A stretch of DNA of 64,000 bases from IMG/VR virus record IMGVR_UViG_3300032007_000017. The stretch is one strand, 5' to 3'. Shown one piece after another: positions 23,432-49,849 of the stretch. The notes beneath the pieces were generated by a model. That model saw only the letters and a program-made list of their open reading frames with translations, was not told where the DNA came from and ran no database searches. Each line of letters starts with the position of its first letter. The stretch's first letter is position 1. The translations under genes and the position numbers were made by a program. The stretch is from a virus. Its lineage: Duplodnaviria > Caudoviricetes.

Positions 23432-24199
23432 ATGGCTCCTATGAATAAGATGACTAATCTGCTCAATAAGATTGAGAGACGTTTAGGAACCAAAATGCTG
23501 AATCTTCCTGATGAACTCTCTAAAGATGAGTGGGCTAAAGTCATTGATGAAGACTCTTTAACTACTTTTTCTCGTTTCTTTCCTAATCAGATGACTATCA
23601 TTCTTGGGCCCGATCTTAAGAAACAAGATGGATGGTATCTGATTGATGAGTATATTCCTGATAATGTTGAAATCTTAGGAATTCGTGATATAGATTTCCC
23701 TATGCTTTCTCAAGATGCATCTACTCAGCATGATGCATATGGGTTTGGTATCTATTCTGTCCTTCCGACTGATTATTCTTATGATGATATTGCTGCTATT
23801 CAGATGAGAGCAGATTTAACTTCTATCTTTTTGAATCAGATCTTTGTCAAGTACAAAGCTCCTAATATGATTCGTTTGGAATCAAATTATCATACGGATG
23901 TCACTCGTGGATTTAAGAATTATCCTCTCCATCTTTTGATTAAGCATGCACCTAATCTGATGACGATTCCTCCTACCATGATGGAAACATTTGAGAATCT
24001 TGCTACTGCCGATGTAGCTAAATTCCTTCATGGTAATCTTAAGTACTTTGATGGAGCAGAAACAGTCTATGCAAATCTCGATCTTAAACTTCAAGACTTA
24101 GAACAAGAAGCTAATAAGAGAGATGATATTGTAAAAGAACTTGATGATGCTCATGTCTCTGCTGCAAATCAGAATCAGCCTTTGATTCTCTGTGTATAA
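23432..24199 (+). CDS. Putative neck/head-completion protein
   Basis: 255 aa; N-terminal 'IERRLG' and overall layout reminiscent of T4 gp13-type neck proteins; late-type promoter 23398-23409. Confidence 0.55.
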   Translation: MAPMNKMTNLLNKIERRLGTKMLNLPDELSKDEWAKVIDEDSLTTFSRFFPNQMTIILGPDLKKQDGWYLIDEYIPDNVEILGIRDIDFPMLSQDASTQHDAYGFGIYSVLPTDYSYDDIAAIQMRADLTSIFLNQIFVKYKAPNMIRLESNYHTDVTRGFKNYPLHLLIKHAPNLMTIPPTMMETFENLATADVAKFLHGNLKYFDGAETVYANLDLKLQDLEQEANKRDDIVKELDDAHVSAANQNQPLILCV

Positions 24200-24212
24200 A
24201 AATAAACTAAAT

Positions 24213-24257
24213 TCAACAAATTGATAAAGGACCGGCCAGTCCCGGTCCTTTATCTTT
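24213..24257 (+). repeat. 45-nt promoter plus hairpin element, copy 1
   Basis: 43/45 identical to 49674-49718; the two differences are paired with each other in the stem. Confidence 0.95.
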
Positions 24258-24444
24258 GACAAATAAGCATTAGGGTTATAATATCTTGACATGTTATGTC
24301 CTCCATTTATAAATATTTATATTTGAAGGACCTCCTATTCGAGTCAATAGAAGTGATAGTGGTATGACTGGCTACCACTATCACTTCTATTCATTCTTAT
24401 GGATCATATAAAAAAGAAAAACCGAGGGATTTCTCCCTCGGTTT
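24226..24444 (+). ncRNA. Candidate structured late RNA A: 5' hairpin, anti-SD region, 19-bp hairpin
   Basis: AACA-N6-TA at 24215-24226; hairpins 24223-24254 and 24346-24391 have complementary loops; 3' end uncertain. Confidence 0.5.
24419..24444 (-). terminator. Intrinsic terminator, possibly bidirectional
   Basis: 11-bp stem plus U tail. Confidence 0.8.
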
Positions 24445-25084
24445 ATAAGTATGTGTGTAGTAATCTTGTGAGTAAAATAGCATTGCCAATATCAGCAGCA
24501 GGACTATATTTGATGAAAACTCTACCATCTTTTATATAAGACCCTTCAAAATGATCAATCAATTTATTTATAATATACTGATTGATACTAATTGTAATAA
24601 ATGAGTCTTTTGAATATCCTGTATTGATATTAAATGATAGATAAGACATCTTATGCAGTCCCATAAGCATTGCTTTATATTCTTTTGGATACTTATTATG
24701 GATATCTAAAGCACTAGCAATAGATGCATCCATGCGAATAAGCTGTGGATCGGTTCGATATCCACCATCCCCAAGAAATTCAATCCAATGCTGTTCATAT
24801 ATTGGAATAATTTCATCAATTATTCTTACATTAAGAGTATGGACAAATGCAGCTTTCGTTTGATCATCATGAACAAGCTGATCATATAACTCCTTTGTAT
24901 CATTTAGAGCTTTTAAACGAGCTTGATTTGTTAGACCTCTTAAAAGCTGATTGGTTGTTGCTTCATCGGTTATTTTACCATGTTTTTTATTAGCCGTTGA
25001 TAGTGCTGTTGATGCATAAGCTTCTATAATAACTGATTCAGGATCAGAAGCATCATAAAATGAATAATGCCCTACACTATACAT
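24443..25084 (-). CDS. Hypothetical protein
   Basis: 213-aa ORF, GGAGG SD within the end of the upstream gene. Confidence 0.75.
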   Translation of the reverse strand: MYSVGHYSFYDASDPESVIIEAYASTALSTANKKHGKITDEATTNQLLRGLTNQARLKALNDTKELYDQLVHDDQTKAAFVHTLNVRIIDEIIPIYEQHWIEFLGDGGYRTDPQLIRMDASIASALDIHNKYPKEYKAMLMGLHKMSYLSFNINTGYSKDSFITISINQYIINKLIDHFEGSYIKDGRVFIKYSPAADIGNAILLTRLLHTYL

Positions 25085-25863: not shown

Positions 25864-25907
25864 TACTATTACACCTCATGGTAATAATATCCAATTATAA
25901 AAAAGAA

Positions 25908-25933
25908 AAGCCCTGGGTTTTATCCCAGGGCTT
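25908..25933 (-). terminator. Intrinsic terminator
   Basis: 10-bp stem plus U tail. Confidence 0.8.
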
Positions 25934-25991: not shown

Positions 25992-26171
25992 TTATGCGAG
26001 CCCAAGCGCTGCGAAAAATGCAGCCGCGGGATCTGCCTCTTCCTTGTTGGGGTAAGCGATCTTCGCGGCGTTGATCAACGCCATACGCTCCTCATGGGAC
26101 TTGGACTGATAGTCAACAGACTTCAGCCACTTAAGGGCCTCCATGGAGAGAAGTTCACCGTCATGCGACAT
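25992..26171 (-). CDS. Small hypothetical protein (MSHDGELL..., 59 aa)
   Basis: AGGAGG SD; start overlaps the stop of the upstream ORF. Confidence 0.6.
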   Translation of the reverse strand: MSHDGELLSMEALKWLKSVDYQSKSHEERMALINAAKIAYPNKEEADPAAAFFAALGLA

Positions 26172-30227: not shown

Positions 30228-30281
30228 GTGTTATTCATACCCTTTCATTTTATTATGATGATAATATGTAACTAAAAAAGA

Positions 30282-30308
30282 AAACGAGGGAGATTTACTC
30301 CCTCGTTT
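30282..30308 (-). terminator. Intrinsic terminator
   Basis: 11-bp stem plus U tail. Confidence 0.8.
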
Positions 30309-42214: not shown

Positions 42215-43283
42215 ATGCACTTGTATGAACGTTGTAAATGGACCCATTGCGGAATTAGGTTCTTATTTACAGCTTAGTTTTAATAGTGGTCTTAAAGACT
42301 ACACTGTTCCTGTATATGTCGGCAAACTGTATACAATCAAGTGGTATAACCCTGATATGCAACAGTATGTGACAACCTCTGGAACGATTACTGGTATCAG
42401 TCAAGAATACATTGCTCAGAATTGTGTCAGGCTCTTAGATCAATATGGTAATGTATGCTTGAATGCTAATTTAGATCGTCTCAGTGGATTGATTTCTAAT
42501 GAAACTTATACGATTATGACCTCTAATATTGCCGCTATTGCTGCAATTGAAGAGCATACTCCAGTCGATCCCATTACTCCAGTTGAAAGGAGTGAACAAT
42601 TCGTGGCCGTACTCGGTATATCTTCTATGATCGTAAGATCTGTTATTGTCAGACTGAAGATCTTCGAAGATGATGTACAACATACTGTAACACCTGTCGA
42701 TATGGCAGTTGGAAATTCTTATCATGTAACGTGGTATAATCCTAATACCAATTCTGTCTATGAATTAACTGGCAGATTGGTTTTAATCGAGGAACTTCCG
42801 TTATATGGTAAAGAACCTACAACAAATGGATATGTACGTCAGGATCAAGCACAGCAAGCTGGTGACAGCAATAATGTGTATGATCCTAATTATTTTCATA
42901 ATCTTCCTAAGCATAATCCTGATGGAGATAGAATTAGATTCTGCTTTGACTCTTCTTCTAACTTCGAATCAAAATGGGATTATGTGATGCTGAGGGATAT
43001 CAGAAGAGTAGAGTTGGTTGAACCTGGTCCGATACCTCCGGCTCCTGTGCCGCCGGTACCGCCTCCTATACCTCCTATTCCTCCTTGCCCTCCGCCTCCA
43101 TATCCCCCGGGACCTGGTCCGATACCTCCGTATCCTCCCCAGCCTCCCTATCCGCCTTATCCTCCGTATCCTCCCTGCCCTCCTGGACCGCCTCCTGGAC
43201 CTAAGCCTCCATTCGATCCGGTTCCTCATCCATTCCCTGAGGGAGAGCATACGATTCAGCCTGATGCTGGAGAAGAAGGTTAA
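42192..43283 (+). CDS. Putative virion protein: two beta-rich repeats plus a proline-rich tail
   Basis: Duplicated G..Y...WYN......G domain; PPYPP repeats. Confidence 0.75.
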   Translation: MVISPNTECTCMNVVNGPIAELGSYLQLSFNSGLKDYTVPVYVGKLYTIKWYNPDMQQYVTTSGTITGISQEYIAQNCVRLLDQYGNVCLNANLDRLSGLISNETYTIMTSNIAAIAAIEEHTPVDPITPVERSEQFVAVLGISSMIVRSVIVRLKIFEDDVQHTVTPVDMAVGNSYHVTWYNPNTNSVYELTGRLVLIEELPLYGKEPTTNGYVRQDQAQQAGDSNNVYDPNYFHNLPKHNPDGDRIRFCFDSSSNFESKWDYVMLRDIRRVELVEPGPIPPAPVPPVPPPIPPIPPCPPPPYPPGPGPIPPYPPQPPYPPYPPYPPCPPGPPPGPKPPFDPVPHPFPEGEHTIQPDAGEEG

Positions 43284-43294
43284 GTTCTATAATA

Positions 43295-43323
43295 AGCCCT
43301 ATGCCTTTTTTAGGCATAGGGCT
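43295..43323 (+). terminator. Intrinsic terminator
   Basis: 12-bp stem. Confidence 0.75.
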
Positions 43324-43373
43324 ATTTCAGTCGAACAATCTAATAATTCAGTAAGAAGGAGGCGTAACACAGT

Positions 43374-45710
43374 ATGCCTATTATTGGTTCTGAGGTACTT
43401 CAGAAGAACTATTATAGACTTAGCATATCTATGGGTGGAGGACTTACTGATAACGTCCTCGTTTCCAAAGATGGCTTATATTCTGTGTACTACATCCGCA
43501 ATGGCCAGTATATCAATGAAACTGGCCGTATACCGCAGGTAGTTGTGGATTATAGACACCCGCAAAATAGCTATCTTCTTTTGGATTACTCCCATGATCG
43601 TTCGAGCCAGAGAGAACGTATTTACTTCTATCAGGTTCAGATGATCAAGGATATCACCCCGAATAACGCCTACATTATTGCAGTCGAACATGGGTTTGAA
43701 GGTACGATTGAGGAATGGCTCGCTTCTCTCAAGGGCGATCCTGGTAAGTCTGCCTATGAAATTGCTGTCGATTGTGGATATGTCGGTACCGAAGAGGAGT
43801 GGTTAGCTTCTCTTAAGGGTGAAAAGGGAGATCCTGGTAAAAACGCTTATGAGATCGCAGTTGATCATGGCTATGAAGGTACGATTGAAGACTGGATGGC
43901 CGAGTTTGGTGATACTACAGTTATCAAACAGGATGTGGATATCCTTAAGCAGACTACTGCTGGTTTGACAACTAAAGTTACTGAACTTGACACTGCAATT
44001 GAAGAAGCAAAAGCTACAGCTACTGAAGCCAAGACTGCGGCTTCACAGGCTGTGGTAGATGCGACCGCTGCACGAGTCGCATCTGGAGAAGCAATTACCA
44101 AGGCTAATGAAGCTAAGGGAATTGCTACTACTGCTGACGAGAAAGCTACCGAAGCTGGTACAAAGGCTGATGAGGCTAAAGACATTGCTGATGGTGCTGC
44201 ATCGCTCGCAGGTGATGCTTCCGCAAAGGCTGACGAAGCAAAGTCCATGTCAGAAGAGGCAAATACTAAATCTGATACGGCTGTTATCAAGTCTGAAGAG
44301 GCCAATACAAAATCTGAGGAAGCTAATGTAAAAGCTGATGAAGCTAGCACTAAGGCTGATGAGGCTAAGAGCTCTGCAGAAGAAGCAAATACCAAATCTG
44401 ATACTGCTATTACCAAGTCTACTGAAGCCACTGAAAAGGCTGCTAGCGCTGATGCTAAAGCTGATGAAGCAGTTACTAAGTCTGAAGAGGCTAAGACTGC
44501 TTCTGAGGAAGCTGGAACTAAGGCTGATGCTGCTAAGACTACCGCTGAAGAGGCTAATGAGAAAGCCACAGAGGCTAGCACCAAAGCAGACGAGGCTGGT
44601 ACCAAGGCCGATGCGGCCAAGACTGCTGCCGATGAAGCCGGTACAAAGGCCGACGAGGCCAGTACTAAGGCAGATGAGGCAGGAACCAAGGCTGATGAAG
44701 CCAAGACTGCTTCAGAAGAAGCTAATACAAAAGCAGATGAAGCAAAGACTACTGCTACTGAAGCTGGAACTAAGGCTGATGCAGCCAAAACCGCTGCTGA
44801 TGAAGCCGGTACAAAGGCCGATGAAGCTAGCACCAAAGCAGATGAAGCTAAGACTGCTTCTGAAGAAGCTGGAACTAAAGCTGATGCTGCTAAAACTGCT
44901 GCCGAAGAGGCTAGCACGAAAGCCGATGAAGCTACTCAGAAAGCAGAAGATGCTGCTTCTGAGATTAGTAAGATCGAAAAGATCATCGATACTACTGAGA
45001 AAGATCCTATCGTGATCCAGCCTGATATCGTTCCTTCGATTACCAATGCTGGAGAATTTGAGGTAGGAACTCAGTTTACTCCTGAATTCTCTAACCTGTT
45101 TGCTCCTGGGAATTATGAGTATGGTCCTGATCCTACTGGTGTTGTTGCTACTAGCATTTTGGTTACTGATACAGAGGGTAATACTTCTGATCAGATGGAA
45201 GGCACTATGCCTGCATTCACTATCACTGAAGATTCTAATTATCGCATTAGCGTTGATTGTAATCATAGTGCTGGTGAAGCTCCTCTGACAAATCTTGGTA
45301 ATCCTCGTCCTGCTCTTGCTATCGAGGAGAGCCATGTCACTAATATCACTGAAGATAGACTGGTTACTGGCGCTAGATATACTTTTGCTGGTGCAGTCAA
45401 TGAAAAGATTGCGATTGAGAATATAGATTCCGATTATATTCGCAGTCTTACTGGTTTTAGTGATACTAATATCGATAATATTAGACTTTCTGTCCCTGTT
45501 AATGCTCTTAGATTCATCTTCGCTACGCCGAATGATTCTATCACGAGAATCTGGGATGAGAATGCTAATATGGATATCACAAAAGCATTTAAGAAGTATA
45601 CTATATCCGTTGCTGGTGCTAATGGTTACGAAGCAATTGACTATTCTGTATATGTCATTAACTTTGCTGAGCCTAACGACACAGCCAATGTATATAATAT
45701 CACGCTGTAA
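43374..45710 (+). CDS. Fibre protein with collagen-associated repeats and a long heptad coiled coil
   Basis: 3x AYxIAVxxG(F/Y)xGTxExW repeats with KGDPG; about 300 aa of TKADEAx heptads; late-type promoter 43334-43345. Confidence 0.85.
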   Translation: MPIIGSEVLQKNYYRLSISMGGGLTDNVLVSKDGLYSVYYIRNGQYINETGRIPQVVVDYRHPQNSYLLLDYSHDRSSQRERIYFYQVQMIKDITPNNAYIIAVEHGFEGTIEEWLASLKGDPGKSAYEIAVDCGYVGTEEEWLASLKGEKGDPGKNAYEIAVDHGYEGTIEDWMAEFGDTTVIKQDVDILKQTTAGLTTKVTELDTAIEEAKATATEAKTAASQAVVDATAARVASGEAITKANEAKGIATTADEKATEAGTKADEAKDIADGAASLAGDASAKADEAKSMSEEANTKSDTAVIKSEEANTKSEEANVKADEASTKADEAKSSAEEANTKSDTAITKSTEATEKAASADAKADEAVTKSEEAKTASEEAGTKADAAKTTAEEANEKATEASTKADEAGTKADAAKTAADEAGTKADEASTKADEAGTKADEAKTASEEANTKADEAKTTATEAGTKADAAKTAADEAGTKADEASTKADEAKTASEEAGTKADAAKTAAEEASTKADEATQKAEDAASEISKIEKIIDTTEKDPIVIQPDIVPSITNAGEFEVGTQFTPEFSNLFAPGNYEYGPDPTGVVATSILVTDTEGNTSDQMEGTMPAFTITEDSNYRISVDCNHSAGEAPLTNLGNPRPALAIEESHVTNITEDRLVTGARYTFAGAVNEKIAIENIDSDYIRSLTGFSDTNIDNIRLSVPVNALRFIFATPNDSITRIWDENANMDITKAFKKYTISVAGANGYEAIDYSVYVINFAEPNDTANVYNITL
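44090..44960 (+). repeat. Degenerate 21-nt coding tandem repeat (TKADEAx heptads)
   Basis: Recurrent AAGGCTGATGA / AAAGCAGATGA units. Confidence 0.85.
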
Positions 45711-49673: not shown

Positions 49674-49718
49674 TCAACAAATTGATAAAGGACCAGCCAG
49701 TCCTGGTCCTTTATCTTT
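49674..49718 (+). repeat. 45-nt promoter plus hairpin element, copy 2
   Basis: 43/45 identical to 24213-24257. Confidence 0.95.
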
Positions 49719-49828
49719 ATTCATAAGCTTGTCGACTTAAGCTCATGAATGATCCGATCGTCTAAACAAACCGGGATAGCTAAACGATCAGGAAGACGGG
49801 TAGCAGAAATGCTACCCGTCGTTCTATC
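49687..49828 (+). ncRNA. Candidate structured late RNA B with four consecutive stems
   Basis: AACA-N6-TA 49676-49687; stems 49684-49715, 49719-49750, 49753-49793 and 49795-49820 (GAAA loop); no ORF; the sheath gene has its own promoter downstream. Confidence 0.55.
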
Positions 49829-49849
49829 TATGCCTCATTGCTGAAGTTT

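Follow-up and report, generated by a model that had tools for sequence, protein, structure and literature searches.

Two hairpins with complementary loops in an AR9-like jumbo phage are probably the leader and terminator of a decayed small early-gene cassette

Results

The locus and its source genome

The window analysed here is a stretch of 64,000 nucleotides of phage DNA corresponding to bases 73533-137532 of a 178-kb IMG/VR virus record that is 72% complete by estimate. The locus of interest is the 246-nt gap between two convergent genes, and its features are as follows.

23432-24199, plus strand: late gene for a 255-aa virion structural protein (phrog_18911, E 2.7e-23), convergent with the cassette described below.
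24215-24226, plus strand: AACA-N6-TA motif (the AR9 late core) whose predicted start point, A24226, is where a 10-bp version of hairpin 1 begins; its function is doubtful.
24223-24254, both strands: hairpin 1, with a perfect 13-bp stem (A-tract, GC core, U-tract) and a 6-nt loop, CCAGTC, at 24236-24241; from folding and a terminator scan.
24255-24292, minus strand: relic of a small gene, comprising the start codon (24292-24290) and the first 13 codons, fused to hairpin 1; from alignment with relatives L092, L095, L096, L103 and L104.
24298-24331, minus strand: AT-rich hairpin pairing the Shine-Dalgarno (SD) sequence of the small gene (complement of 24298-24304) with an upstream segment; from folding.
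24346-24391, minus strand: hairpin 2, with a perfect 19-bp stem and an 8-nt loop that reads TGACTGGC on the plus strand (24365-24372) and GCCAGUCA on the minus strand.
24392-24418, minus strand: site of a 28-nt deletion (junction ~24397/24398) from which the early promoter box is gone; from alignment with relatives.
24419-24444, both strands: ancestral two-way terminator between the convergent 255-aa and 213-aa genes, the sole element there in cassette-free relatives.
24443-25084, minus strand: gene for a 213-aa protein of unknown function (from the list of open reading frames), upstream of the cassette on the minus strand.

The source record of the window is an AR9/PBS1-like jumbo phage. The closest relatives of its large terminase are those of the Bacillus phages BpSp, PBS1 and AR9 and of Staphylococcus jumbo phages (36-38% identity), and the genome encodes split RNA polymerase (RNAP) beta/beta'-like genes, present as fragments, as well as a tail sheath protein and a family B DNA polymerase. 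The 255-aa protein has 643 homologues in metagenomic jumbo phages, and the 213-aa protein gave no family match.

Late promoters of AR9 have the form AACA-N6-T(A/G), where the last base is the start point, and early promoters of AR9 and PBS1 have the form AAATATATATTAT-N6-G (Lavysh et al. 2017, PMC5312081). In the source genome, AACA-N6-TA was enriched between genes, with 54 of the 103 copies falling in the intergenic 10.5% of the sequence, mostly 20-45 nt ahead of a start codon on the matching strand. An early box, ATTATATATTAT-N6-G, was found ahead of many genes (~25 besides the small-gene box described below), and other early leaders likewise open with a hairpin right after the box. Since both early and late words are AR9-like, the phage very probably transcribes its genes in the manner of AR9. 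The resemblance to AR9 and PBS1 thus extends over the AACA-N6-TA enrichment, the split RNAP genes and the terminase; the phage differs in being uncultivated, with promoters predicted from motifs, and in the limited identity of its large terminase.

Two neighbouring hairpins share a six-nucleotide loop match

The gap folded much better than shuffled sequences on either strand (z ~ -11). A preliminary description of this DNA had read two of its hairpins as a candidate kissing-loop pair, with hairpin 1 presenting GCCAGTC (24235-24241) and a perfect 19-bp hairpin presenting the exact reverse complement. The coordinates and the stem of the 19-bp hairpin (24346-24391) were confirmed. The seven letters of hairpin 1 are also present and match, but G24235 forms the closing pair of stem 1, leaving a loop of only CCAGTC, and only six nucleotides (CCAGUC/GACUGG) are complementary from loop to loop. 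The predicted energy of the loop duplex is -8.0 kcal/mol for 6 bp and -11.4 kcal/mol for 7 bp. On either strand, folding predicts that the two loops are free of pairing (probability 0.82-1.0). The pair therefore has the predicted anatomy of a kissing-loop complex, namely two stable hairpins with accessible loops that are Watson-Crick complementary over 6 nt. Known kissing-loop RNA pairs include ColE1 RNAI/RNAII, the HIV DIS and the phi29 pRNA.

To estimate chance, we used the 108 perfect hairpins of the 178-kb genome with a stem of at least 8 bp and a loop of at least 5 nt, counting as neighbours those at most 500 nt apart. Outside this hairpin family, loop-loop complementarity of at least 6 nt occurred at 0.0017 per pair, which gives ~0.06 such matches expected by chance among the 33 neighbouring pairs. 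This figure is suggestive but not compelling, and chance is not negligible. Hairpins 1 and 2 are the sole neighbouring pair in the genome with a loop match longer than 4 nt, so loop matching is not a house style of this phage. Even so, it is unusual for the two strongest neighbouring hairpins to match perfectly over 6 nt of loop. The words GCCAGTC and GACTGGC were not enriched in the genome (8 and 3 observed, 5.0 and 4.3 expected). An origin of the two hairpins as a MITE or an inverted duplication was considered and rejected, as inspection by eye found that they share only the 7-mer.

Relatives carry an intact small gene between the hairpins

In five relatives (L092, L095, L096, L103 and L104), an intact minus-strand gene for a 59-aa protein, P0241, lies between the two hairpins. 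The contigs with this intact gene, and with the promoter box beside the hairpins, encode an identical 255-aa protein. The ribosome-binding site and start codon of P0241 correspond to window positions 24304-24290, and the AT-rich hairpin that pairs the SD sequence is near-invariant in all eight of the variants that carry it, with L094 alone differing, at two positions.

In the intact relatives, an AR9-type early box (ATTATATATTAT-N6-G) adjoins hairpin 2 on the minus strand. The box fits the AR9/PBS1 early consensus, with its G as the predicted start point 3-4 nt before the hairpin. Hairpin 2 thus stands a few nucleotides from the G start and on the strand of the downstream gene, both here and in the second cassette described below, which is the placement of an early leader. 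Its stem has two pairs changed on both sides; among the single changes that produce wobble pairs, two favour the plus and three the minus strand in our reading of the variable columns, a split that carries no information on the strand. These motifs and positions suggest that hairpin 2 is a 5'-proximal leader stem-loop of a small early mRNA, where it would most likely protect or process the 5' end.

At the other end of the gene, the stop codon lies 3-20 nt from the base of the hairpin 1-type terminator in the intact relatives (~20 nt for P0241). Hairpin 1 has the predicted make-up of a two-way Rho-independent terminator, with an A-tract, a GC-rich stem and a U-tract between convergent stops and with compensatory changes in the stem. 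Across the copy in the window, the copy at 49.7 kb and the L100-type copy, three stem pairs have changed on both sides and one has become G-U, and 96% of the aligned cells remain paired. Its anatomy and position therefore point to a two-way intrinsic terminator serving the plus-strand 255-aa gene and the minus-strand small early gene. Like other two-way intrinsic terminators between convergent genes, it can be read on both strands between two stops, with an A-tract, GC-rich stem, loop and U-tract. It differs in that its loop has 6 nt, whereas most terminators of this genome have tetraloops (GAAA, TTCG, CGAA), and in that a late-promoter-like motif overlaps its 5' flank. Promoters, transcript ends and termination at hairpin 1 are throughout predictions from motifs and positions.

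The cassette in the window has been broken by two deletions

Two deletions, of 151 nt and 28 nt, are common to the window, L093, L094 and a 270-kb ENA contig. The 151-nt deletion runs between TTTGA direct repeats (~24255-24259); it removed the small gene from codon 14 onward and shifted the frame. At the site of the 28-nt deletion, no early box is left at 24392-24418 even with up to 4 mismatches allowed. As a result, hairpins 1 and 2 are now 91 nt apart in the window with no gene between them. Two other candidate features of this stretch were rejected. A 64-aa open reading frame (ORF) at 24098-24292 is a deletion-made fusion into the antisense of the virion gene, and a sigma-70-like TTGACA-17-TAATAT (24256-24284) lies inside the relic codons and varies at third positions.

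The preliminary description had placed here a small RNA, termed RNA A, with an anti-SD segment. That segment turned out to be the complement of the real SD sequence and start codon of the 59-aa gene, and close relatives lack the supposed RNA. As the two deletions removed most of the coding sequence and the promoter, what was called RNA A with its anti-SD is the antisense strand of a gene relic. RNA A does not qualify as a stand-alone small regulatory RNA, that is, a conserved noncoding unit with its own promoter.

Relatives with 72-76% amino acid identity have convergent stops 31-44 nt apart, with only a terminator of the 24419-24444 type between them (31 nt in L003, 44 nt in L004). Most of the 80 IMG/VR relatives likewise have only this terminator; none of these 80 loci, which came from an alignment-based search and are all at most 58% identical, holds the insertion. 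Since distant relatives have the bare terminator, 24200-24418 is an insertion. The cassette is missing even from the 31-nt gap of L105, whose 213-aa protein falls in the same 90% cluster, and L100-L102 carry a diverged copy of the cassette in which the ORF has an internal stop.

Further searches returned little. A single-protein locus search in IMG/VR gave no loci, and no similar DNA was found in a phage collection. The hairpin 1 pattern had no match in IMG/VR, with the loop either fixed or free, and in JGI metagenomes the loop-free pattern matched only three unrelated bacterial terminators with other loops.

The copy at 49.7 kb is the remnant of a paralogous gene

As the preliminary description had noted, GCCAGTC recurs at 49.7 kb, and the same CCAGTC loop is indeed found there in a hairpin. 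Two features make up this second locus.

49674-49718, both strands: copy B of a 45-nt element, with a hairpin at 49684-49715 and the loop CCAGTC; predicted terminator of a paralogous small gene.
49721-49834, minus strand: truncated paralogue B, comprising the last 37 codons and the stop; from alignment with L086/L087, its translation scoring 158 against P0242.

Copy B differs from the 45-nt stretch around hairpin 1 by one compensatory G-C to A-T change. In L086 and L087, whose flanking protein is 99% identical, the locus contains an intact minus-strand gene for a 60-aa protein, P0242, with the same promoter box, and the stop of this gene lies 3 nt from hairpin B. In the window, a 225-nt deletion removed the 5' half of the gene, the leader hairpin, the promoter box and the upstream terminator. 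The sequence previously taken for a partner RNA, RNA B, is consequently what is left of a paralogous gene after loss of its 5' half. Both cassette B and hairpin B are missing from relatives at 80-82% identity.

Cassette A, at the main locus, and cassette B have common ends, 41 nt at the terminator end (95% identical) and 32 nt at the promoter end (97%), with little in common between. In cassette B the leader hairpin is homologous to hairpin 2 but interrupted, and its loop is CCAGAUC.

P0241 (59 aa) and P0242 (60 aa) are 32% identical. Their alignment score of 51, against 20.9+-4.0 for shuffled sequences (0 of 5000 as high), indicates that they are paralogues. Among 5.8 billion and 1.84 billion proteins, homologues of the small protein were found only in its own cluster and in paralogue B, so there are no further cassettes in which covariation could be followed. 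Neither protein had a match in Pfam or PHROGs. The AlphaFold model of the small protein is confident (pLDDT 85.6) and has three strands and a helix, with no significant match in the PDB. TG, RL and DR residues are conserved in this protein family. Neither hydrophobicity nor any likeness to toxins was apparent in the small proteins.

Discussion

A probable decayed accessory early-gene cassette

Taken together, these results make it probable that 24200-24418 holds the remains of a small accessory early-gene cassette, in which the hairpins are the leader and the terminator and the loop match is coincidental. On the minus strand, the intact cassette would begin with an AR9-type early promoter followed by the 19-bp leader stem-loop (hairpin 2). 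Next would come a short hairpin hiding the ribosome-binding site, and then the 59-aa ORF. The cassette would end at hairpin 1, a putative two-way Rho-independent terminator that would also end the convergent late 255-aa gene. In the window phage, the 151-nt and 28-nt deletions removed most of the ORF and the promoter, and the paralogous cassette at 49.7 kb, diverged but with the same promoter and terminator ends, has decayed likewise. The loop-pair element is ordinary, and in this genome it is defunct.

The arrangement recalls the PeSLs of T4-like phages, composite promoter-terminator motifs that flank variable small ORFs (Arbiol et al. 2010, PMC2839356; Comeau et al. 2014, PMC4122927). Here too, a conserved early promoter and a conserved stem-loop terminator enclose small ORFs without an assigned function, the ends are 95-97% identical between loci around diverged interiors, and the cassettes are inserted, deleted or absent among close relatives, between conserved modules. 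The cassette may thus be called PeSL-like for its conserved promoter and stem-loop ends, divergent ORFs and indels among close relatives. The differences are that the phage group and the promoter type are others, that in PeSLs the stem-loop and promoter form one unit whereas here they stand at opposite ends of one gene, and that the cassette deletions use repeats of at most 5 nt. Ends 95-97% identical around proteins only 32% identical fit conversion or exchange, and no recombinant junction was found.

Does the loop match work?

In intact relatives, one transcript would carry both loops. The leader loop (U/G)CCAGUCA could then pair with the terminator loop GACUGG and close the ~380-nt mRNA, slowing exonucleolytic decay or tuning translation. 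Six perfect pairs at -8.0 kcal/mol between loops that are predicted to be free are in keeping with this, as are the lack of any second such neighbouring pair in the genome and a core that is invariant in eight of eight variants. Pairing of the 5' and 3' UTRs is known to control the bacterial mRNAs icaR (PMC3868564) and hbs (PMC5737220).

The comparison of homologous loci argues against a working contact. In the loop core, 0 of 12 positions vary among the eight variants, against a background of 12.8% (Fisher p = 0.20); this invariance is not significant, and among eight near-identical variants it is uninformative. The seventh pair is absent in five of the eight variants, the base being C in the three decayed and A in the five intact ones. 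As the C occurs only in decayed variants, the exact 7-mer belongs to a dead lineage. In cassette B, an extra A in the leader loop leaves 4 contiguous pairs with its own terminator loop (-4.5 kcal/mol), and the A and B leader loops are no more alike than the surrounding 5' half of the leader. In the L100-type cassette the terminator loop is still CCAGTC, but the leader loop is unrelated and there is no complementarity. No loop covariation was seen, whereas both stems show compensatory changes. The preliminary description had named loop complementarity and covariation in homologous loci as a check; complementarity was kept in near-identical variants only. Moreover, the sampled phage lineages readily lose the whole cassette. 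This particular 5'-3' contact is therefore, in our judgement, unlikely.

Two observations deserve to be recorded here. The six core bases are unchanged in every copy, which is a point against coincidence. The B leader loop repeats the CCAGUC word apart from a single inserted base. A constraint on the loop could explain this, though the whole 5' half of the leader is similarly conserved.

Most likely, the 6-nt match is a coincidence carried by descent in one young cassette lineage rather than a docking device. We give a modest minority weight to the broader possibility that the intact cassette has some working loop contact, whether 5'-3', sense-antisense or by docking to the paralogous transcript. 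If true, such a contact would set mRNA lifetime or translation and would be a case of end-to-end mRNA communication in a phage, present as a fossil in the window.

A possible antisense RNA on the plus strand

A second possibility starts from the late motif at 24215-24226. A plus-strand late RNA from A24226 would silence the small early gene late in infection, with contact starting at the hairpin loops; in the window it would survive as an orphan RNA of ~170-220 nt, kissing itself or the transcript of copy B. First contact through hairpin loops is familiar from plasmid copy-number RNAs and type I toxin-antitoxin pairs. The AR9 late core is present here with the right spacing, and the predicted +1 coincides with the first base of the hairpin. 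In the L100-type copy, AAC-N7-T-purine has stayed in register although many flanking positions differ. In AR9 itself, 13 genes have antisense RNAs driven by late promoters (PMC5312081). For bsrG/SR4 (PMC3834814), first contacts are described that are loop-loop and that involve a terminator loop.

The flanks of the motif are atypical of AR9-like late promoters. Scored with a flank weight matrix built from 32 gene-proximal promoters, the motif gave -6.2 at copy A and -0.85 at copy B, compared with 3.5+-6.0 for gene-proximal copies and -7.1+-5.1 for copies inside genes, so that at copy A it scores like a chance copy. By our own rough estimate from base composition and within-gene density, ~6-20 of the 54 intergenic copies of AACA-N6-TA are expected by chance. 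We regard a working late promoter at 24215-24226 as possible but doubtful. If it did work, its RNA would be first of all an antisense of the small gene, and such full complementarity needs no extra match between hairpins 1 and 2. The small proteins also lack the hydrophobic, toxin-like character that would suit such a pair. The preliminary description had further proposed two convergent RNAs, each beginning with a GCCAGUC-loop hairpin. The geometry holds for the minus strand, where hairpin 2 is predicted to be the 5' hairpin of the 59-aa gene mRNA in intact relatives; the plus-strand half is not supported, its promoter motif having a chance-like score. On balance, silencing by a plus-strand late RNA appears quite unlikely.

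The precedents for both kinds of contact resemble the cassette in having complementary segments at both ends of an mRNA or in the loops of convergent overlapping RNAs. They differ in that mutation and probing demonstrated the pairing there, which takes in the SD region or longer segments, whereas the cassette has a predicted 6-nt match that is not kept in the paralogue.

A possible protein-read loop, and packaging RNA

The word CCAGUC could instead be a loop motif that a phage RNA-binding regulator or ribonuclease reads on the 5' hairpins of both convergent transcripts, with complementarity as a by-product. The same word does occur in hairpin 1 and hairpin B on the plus strand, in hairpin 2 on the minus strand and, with one inserted A, in the B leader on the minus strand, and these loops agree while the stems differ. 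There are only three to four instances, however, all kin by descent, and neither the genome as a whole nor its other hairpin loops are enriched in the motif. Transcription of the plus strand is doubtful, and the binding protein is purely putative. We consider this explanation very unlikely.

A phi29-like packaging RNA, or another RNA forming rings on the prohead by loop-loop pairing, had also been suggested and can practically be dismissed: its one attraction is the formal possibility of intermolecular A-B pairing, while close relatives with the same virion genes are without the element, the phage, an AR9-like myovirus, has a large terminase, the two loci are remnants of genes, and no Rfam family reached its gathering score over the whole window (in a permissive scan of 24150-24480, the only matches were to generic hairpins, far under the threshold).

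Implications

The result is mainly a correction: set beside near-identical phages, the regions taken for novel small RNAs prove to be what deletions have left of two paralogous small genes of the early class, with leader and terminator hairpins of an ordinary kind. The gap that follows the 255-aa virion gene is a hotspot; among phages with 90-100% identity in the flanking proteins, it occurs in at least four allelic states. Beyond this locus, the promoter motifs suggest that the early and late promoter words of Bacillus phage AR9 are also in use in an uncultivated clade of ~250-kb phages.

A hypervariable site between two conserved genes

The interval between the genes encoding the 255-aa and 213-aa proteins was compared with the corresponding loci of related phages, and four or more states were found where the flanking proteins are 90-100% identical. 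The site holds an intact small gene, a doubly deleted relic or a pseudogene that has diverged and contains an internal stop, or it lacks the cassette. In many IMG/VR relatives (L039, L047, L051, L056 and L009), the gap is occupied by other, unrelated small minus-strand ORFs.

24200-24442: hypervariable site between the 255-aa and 213-aa genes, also in L003, L004, L092-L096 and L100-L105

The paralogous 59-aa and 60-aa small proteins are confined to one phage lineage.

L092, 3334-3513, minus strand: family member
L086, 2047-2229, minus strand: family member
25992-26171, minus strand: further 59-aa ORF, predicted as a gene in relatives, which overlaps the 632-aa gene at its end

TG, RL and DR residues are conserved in the family, and AlphaFold predicted a fold of three strands and a C-terminal helix (pLDDT 85.6). 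Searches found nothing in Pfam or PHROGs, no significant match in the PDB, and no homologues beyond this lineage. The ORF at 25992-26171 was rejected as a relative, its scores being 14 and 17 compared to shuffle means of ~19-20.

The candidate "four-stem RNA" upstream of the sheath gene (49719-49834) was also rejected, as this segment is the truncated 3' portion of a minus-strand gene for a 60-aa protein, which L086 and L087 carry intact. The GAAA-capped stem at 49795-49820 lies within the coding sequence of this gene, in the stretch encoding TGSISATRL.

Early and late promoter sequences

An AR9-type early promoter box precedes many genes, with ~25 sites in the genome. Several of the boxes are directly followed on the 3' side by a leader hairpin that opens with ATAGA(A/G)G or AGAGAGG. 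The AR9 late-promoter word, AACA-N6-TA, is enriched at least 2.7-fold in intergenic regions of the whole phage genome and depleted within genes. Its extended consensus there is C-rich and then TC on the 5' side of AACA, with TT-A-G in the spacer, and start codons lie 20-45 nt downstream.

790, 25895, 28131 and 32274, minus strand: examples of the early box, ATTATATATTAT-N6-G
23398, 43334, 49850 and 58553, plus strand: examples of AACA-N6-TA
9848, 19040, 36168 and 55650, minus strand: examples of AACA-N6-TA

Outside the window, at genome position 159008 on the minus strand (~85476 in window coordinates), AACA-N6-TA stands immediately 5' of a 13-bp terminator-like hairpin. This hairpin starts at the predicted +1, a layout shared with hairpin 1 (the putative two-way terminator at 24223-24254). 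The arrangement at 159008 may be a true promoter-in-terminator design or a coincidence of the kind considered for hairpin 1.

Terminator flanks and coding repeats

Three minus-strand terminators (24407-24444, 25896-25933 and 30271-30308) share the conserved flank TATAAAAAAGAAAA, after which comes a GC stem; the stems themselves differ. The common flank looks like a shared U-tract design or repeated conversion. Separately, coding repeats of 21 nt (7 aa) and 9 nt (PPY-like) were observed in long arrays at 43000-45000, in ORFs of 366 aa and 778 aa, whose products have the appearance of structural proteins of a fibre or collagen-like type.
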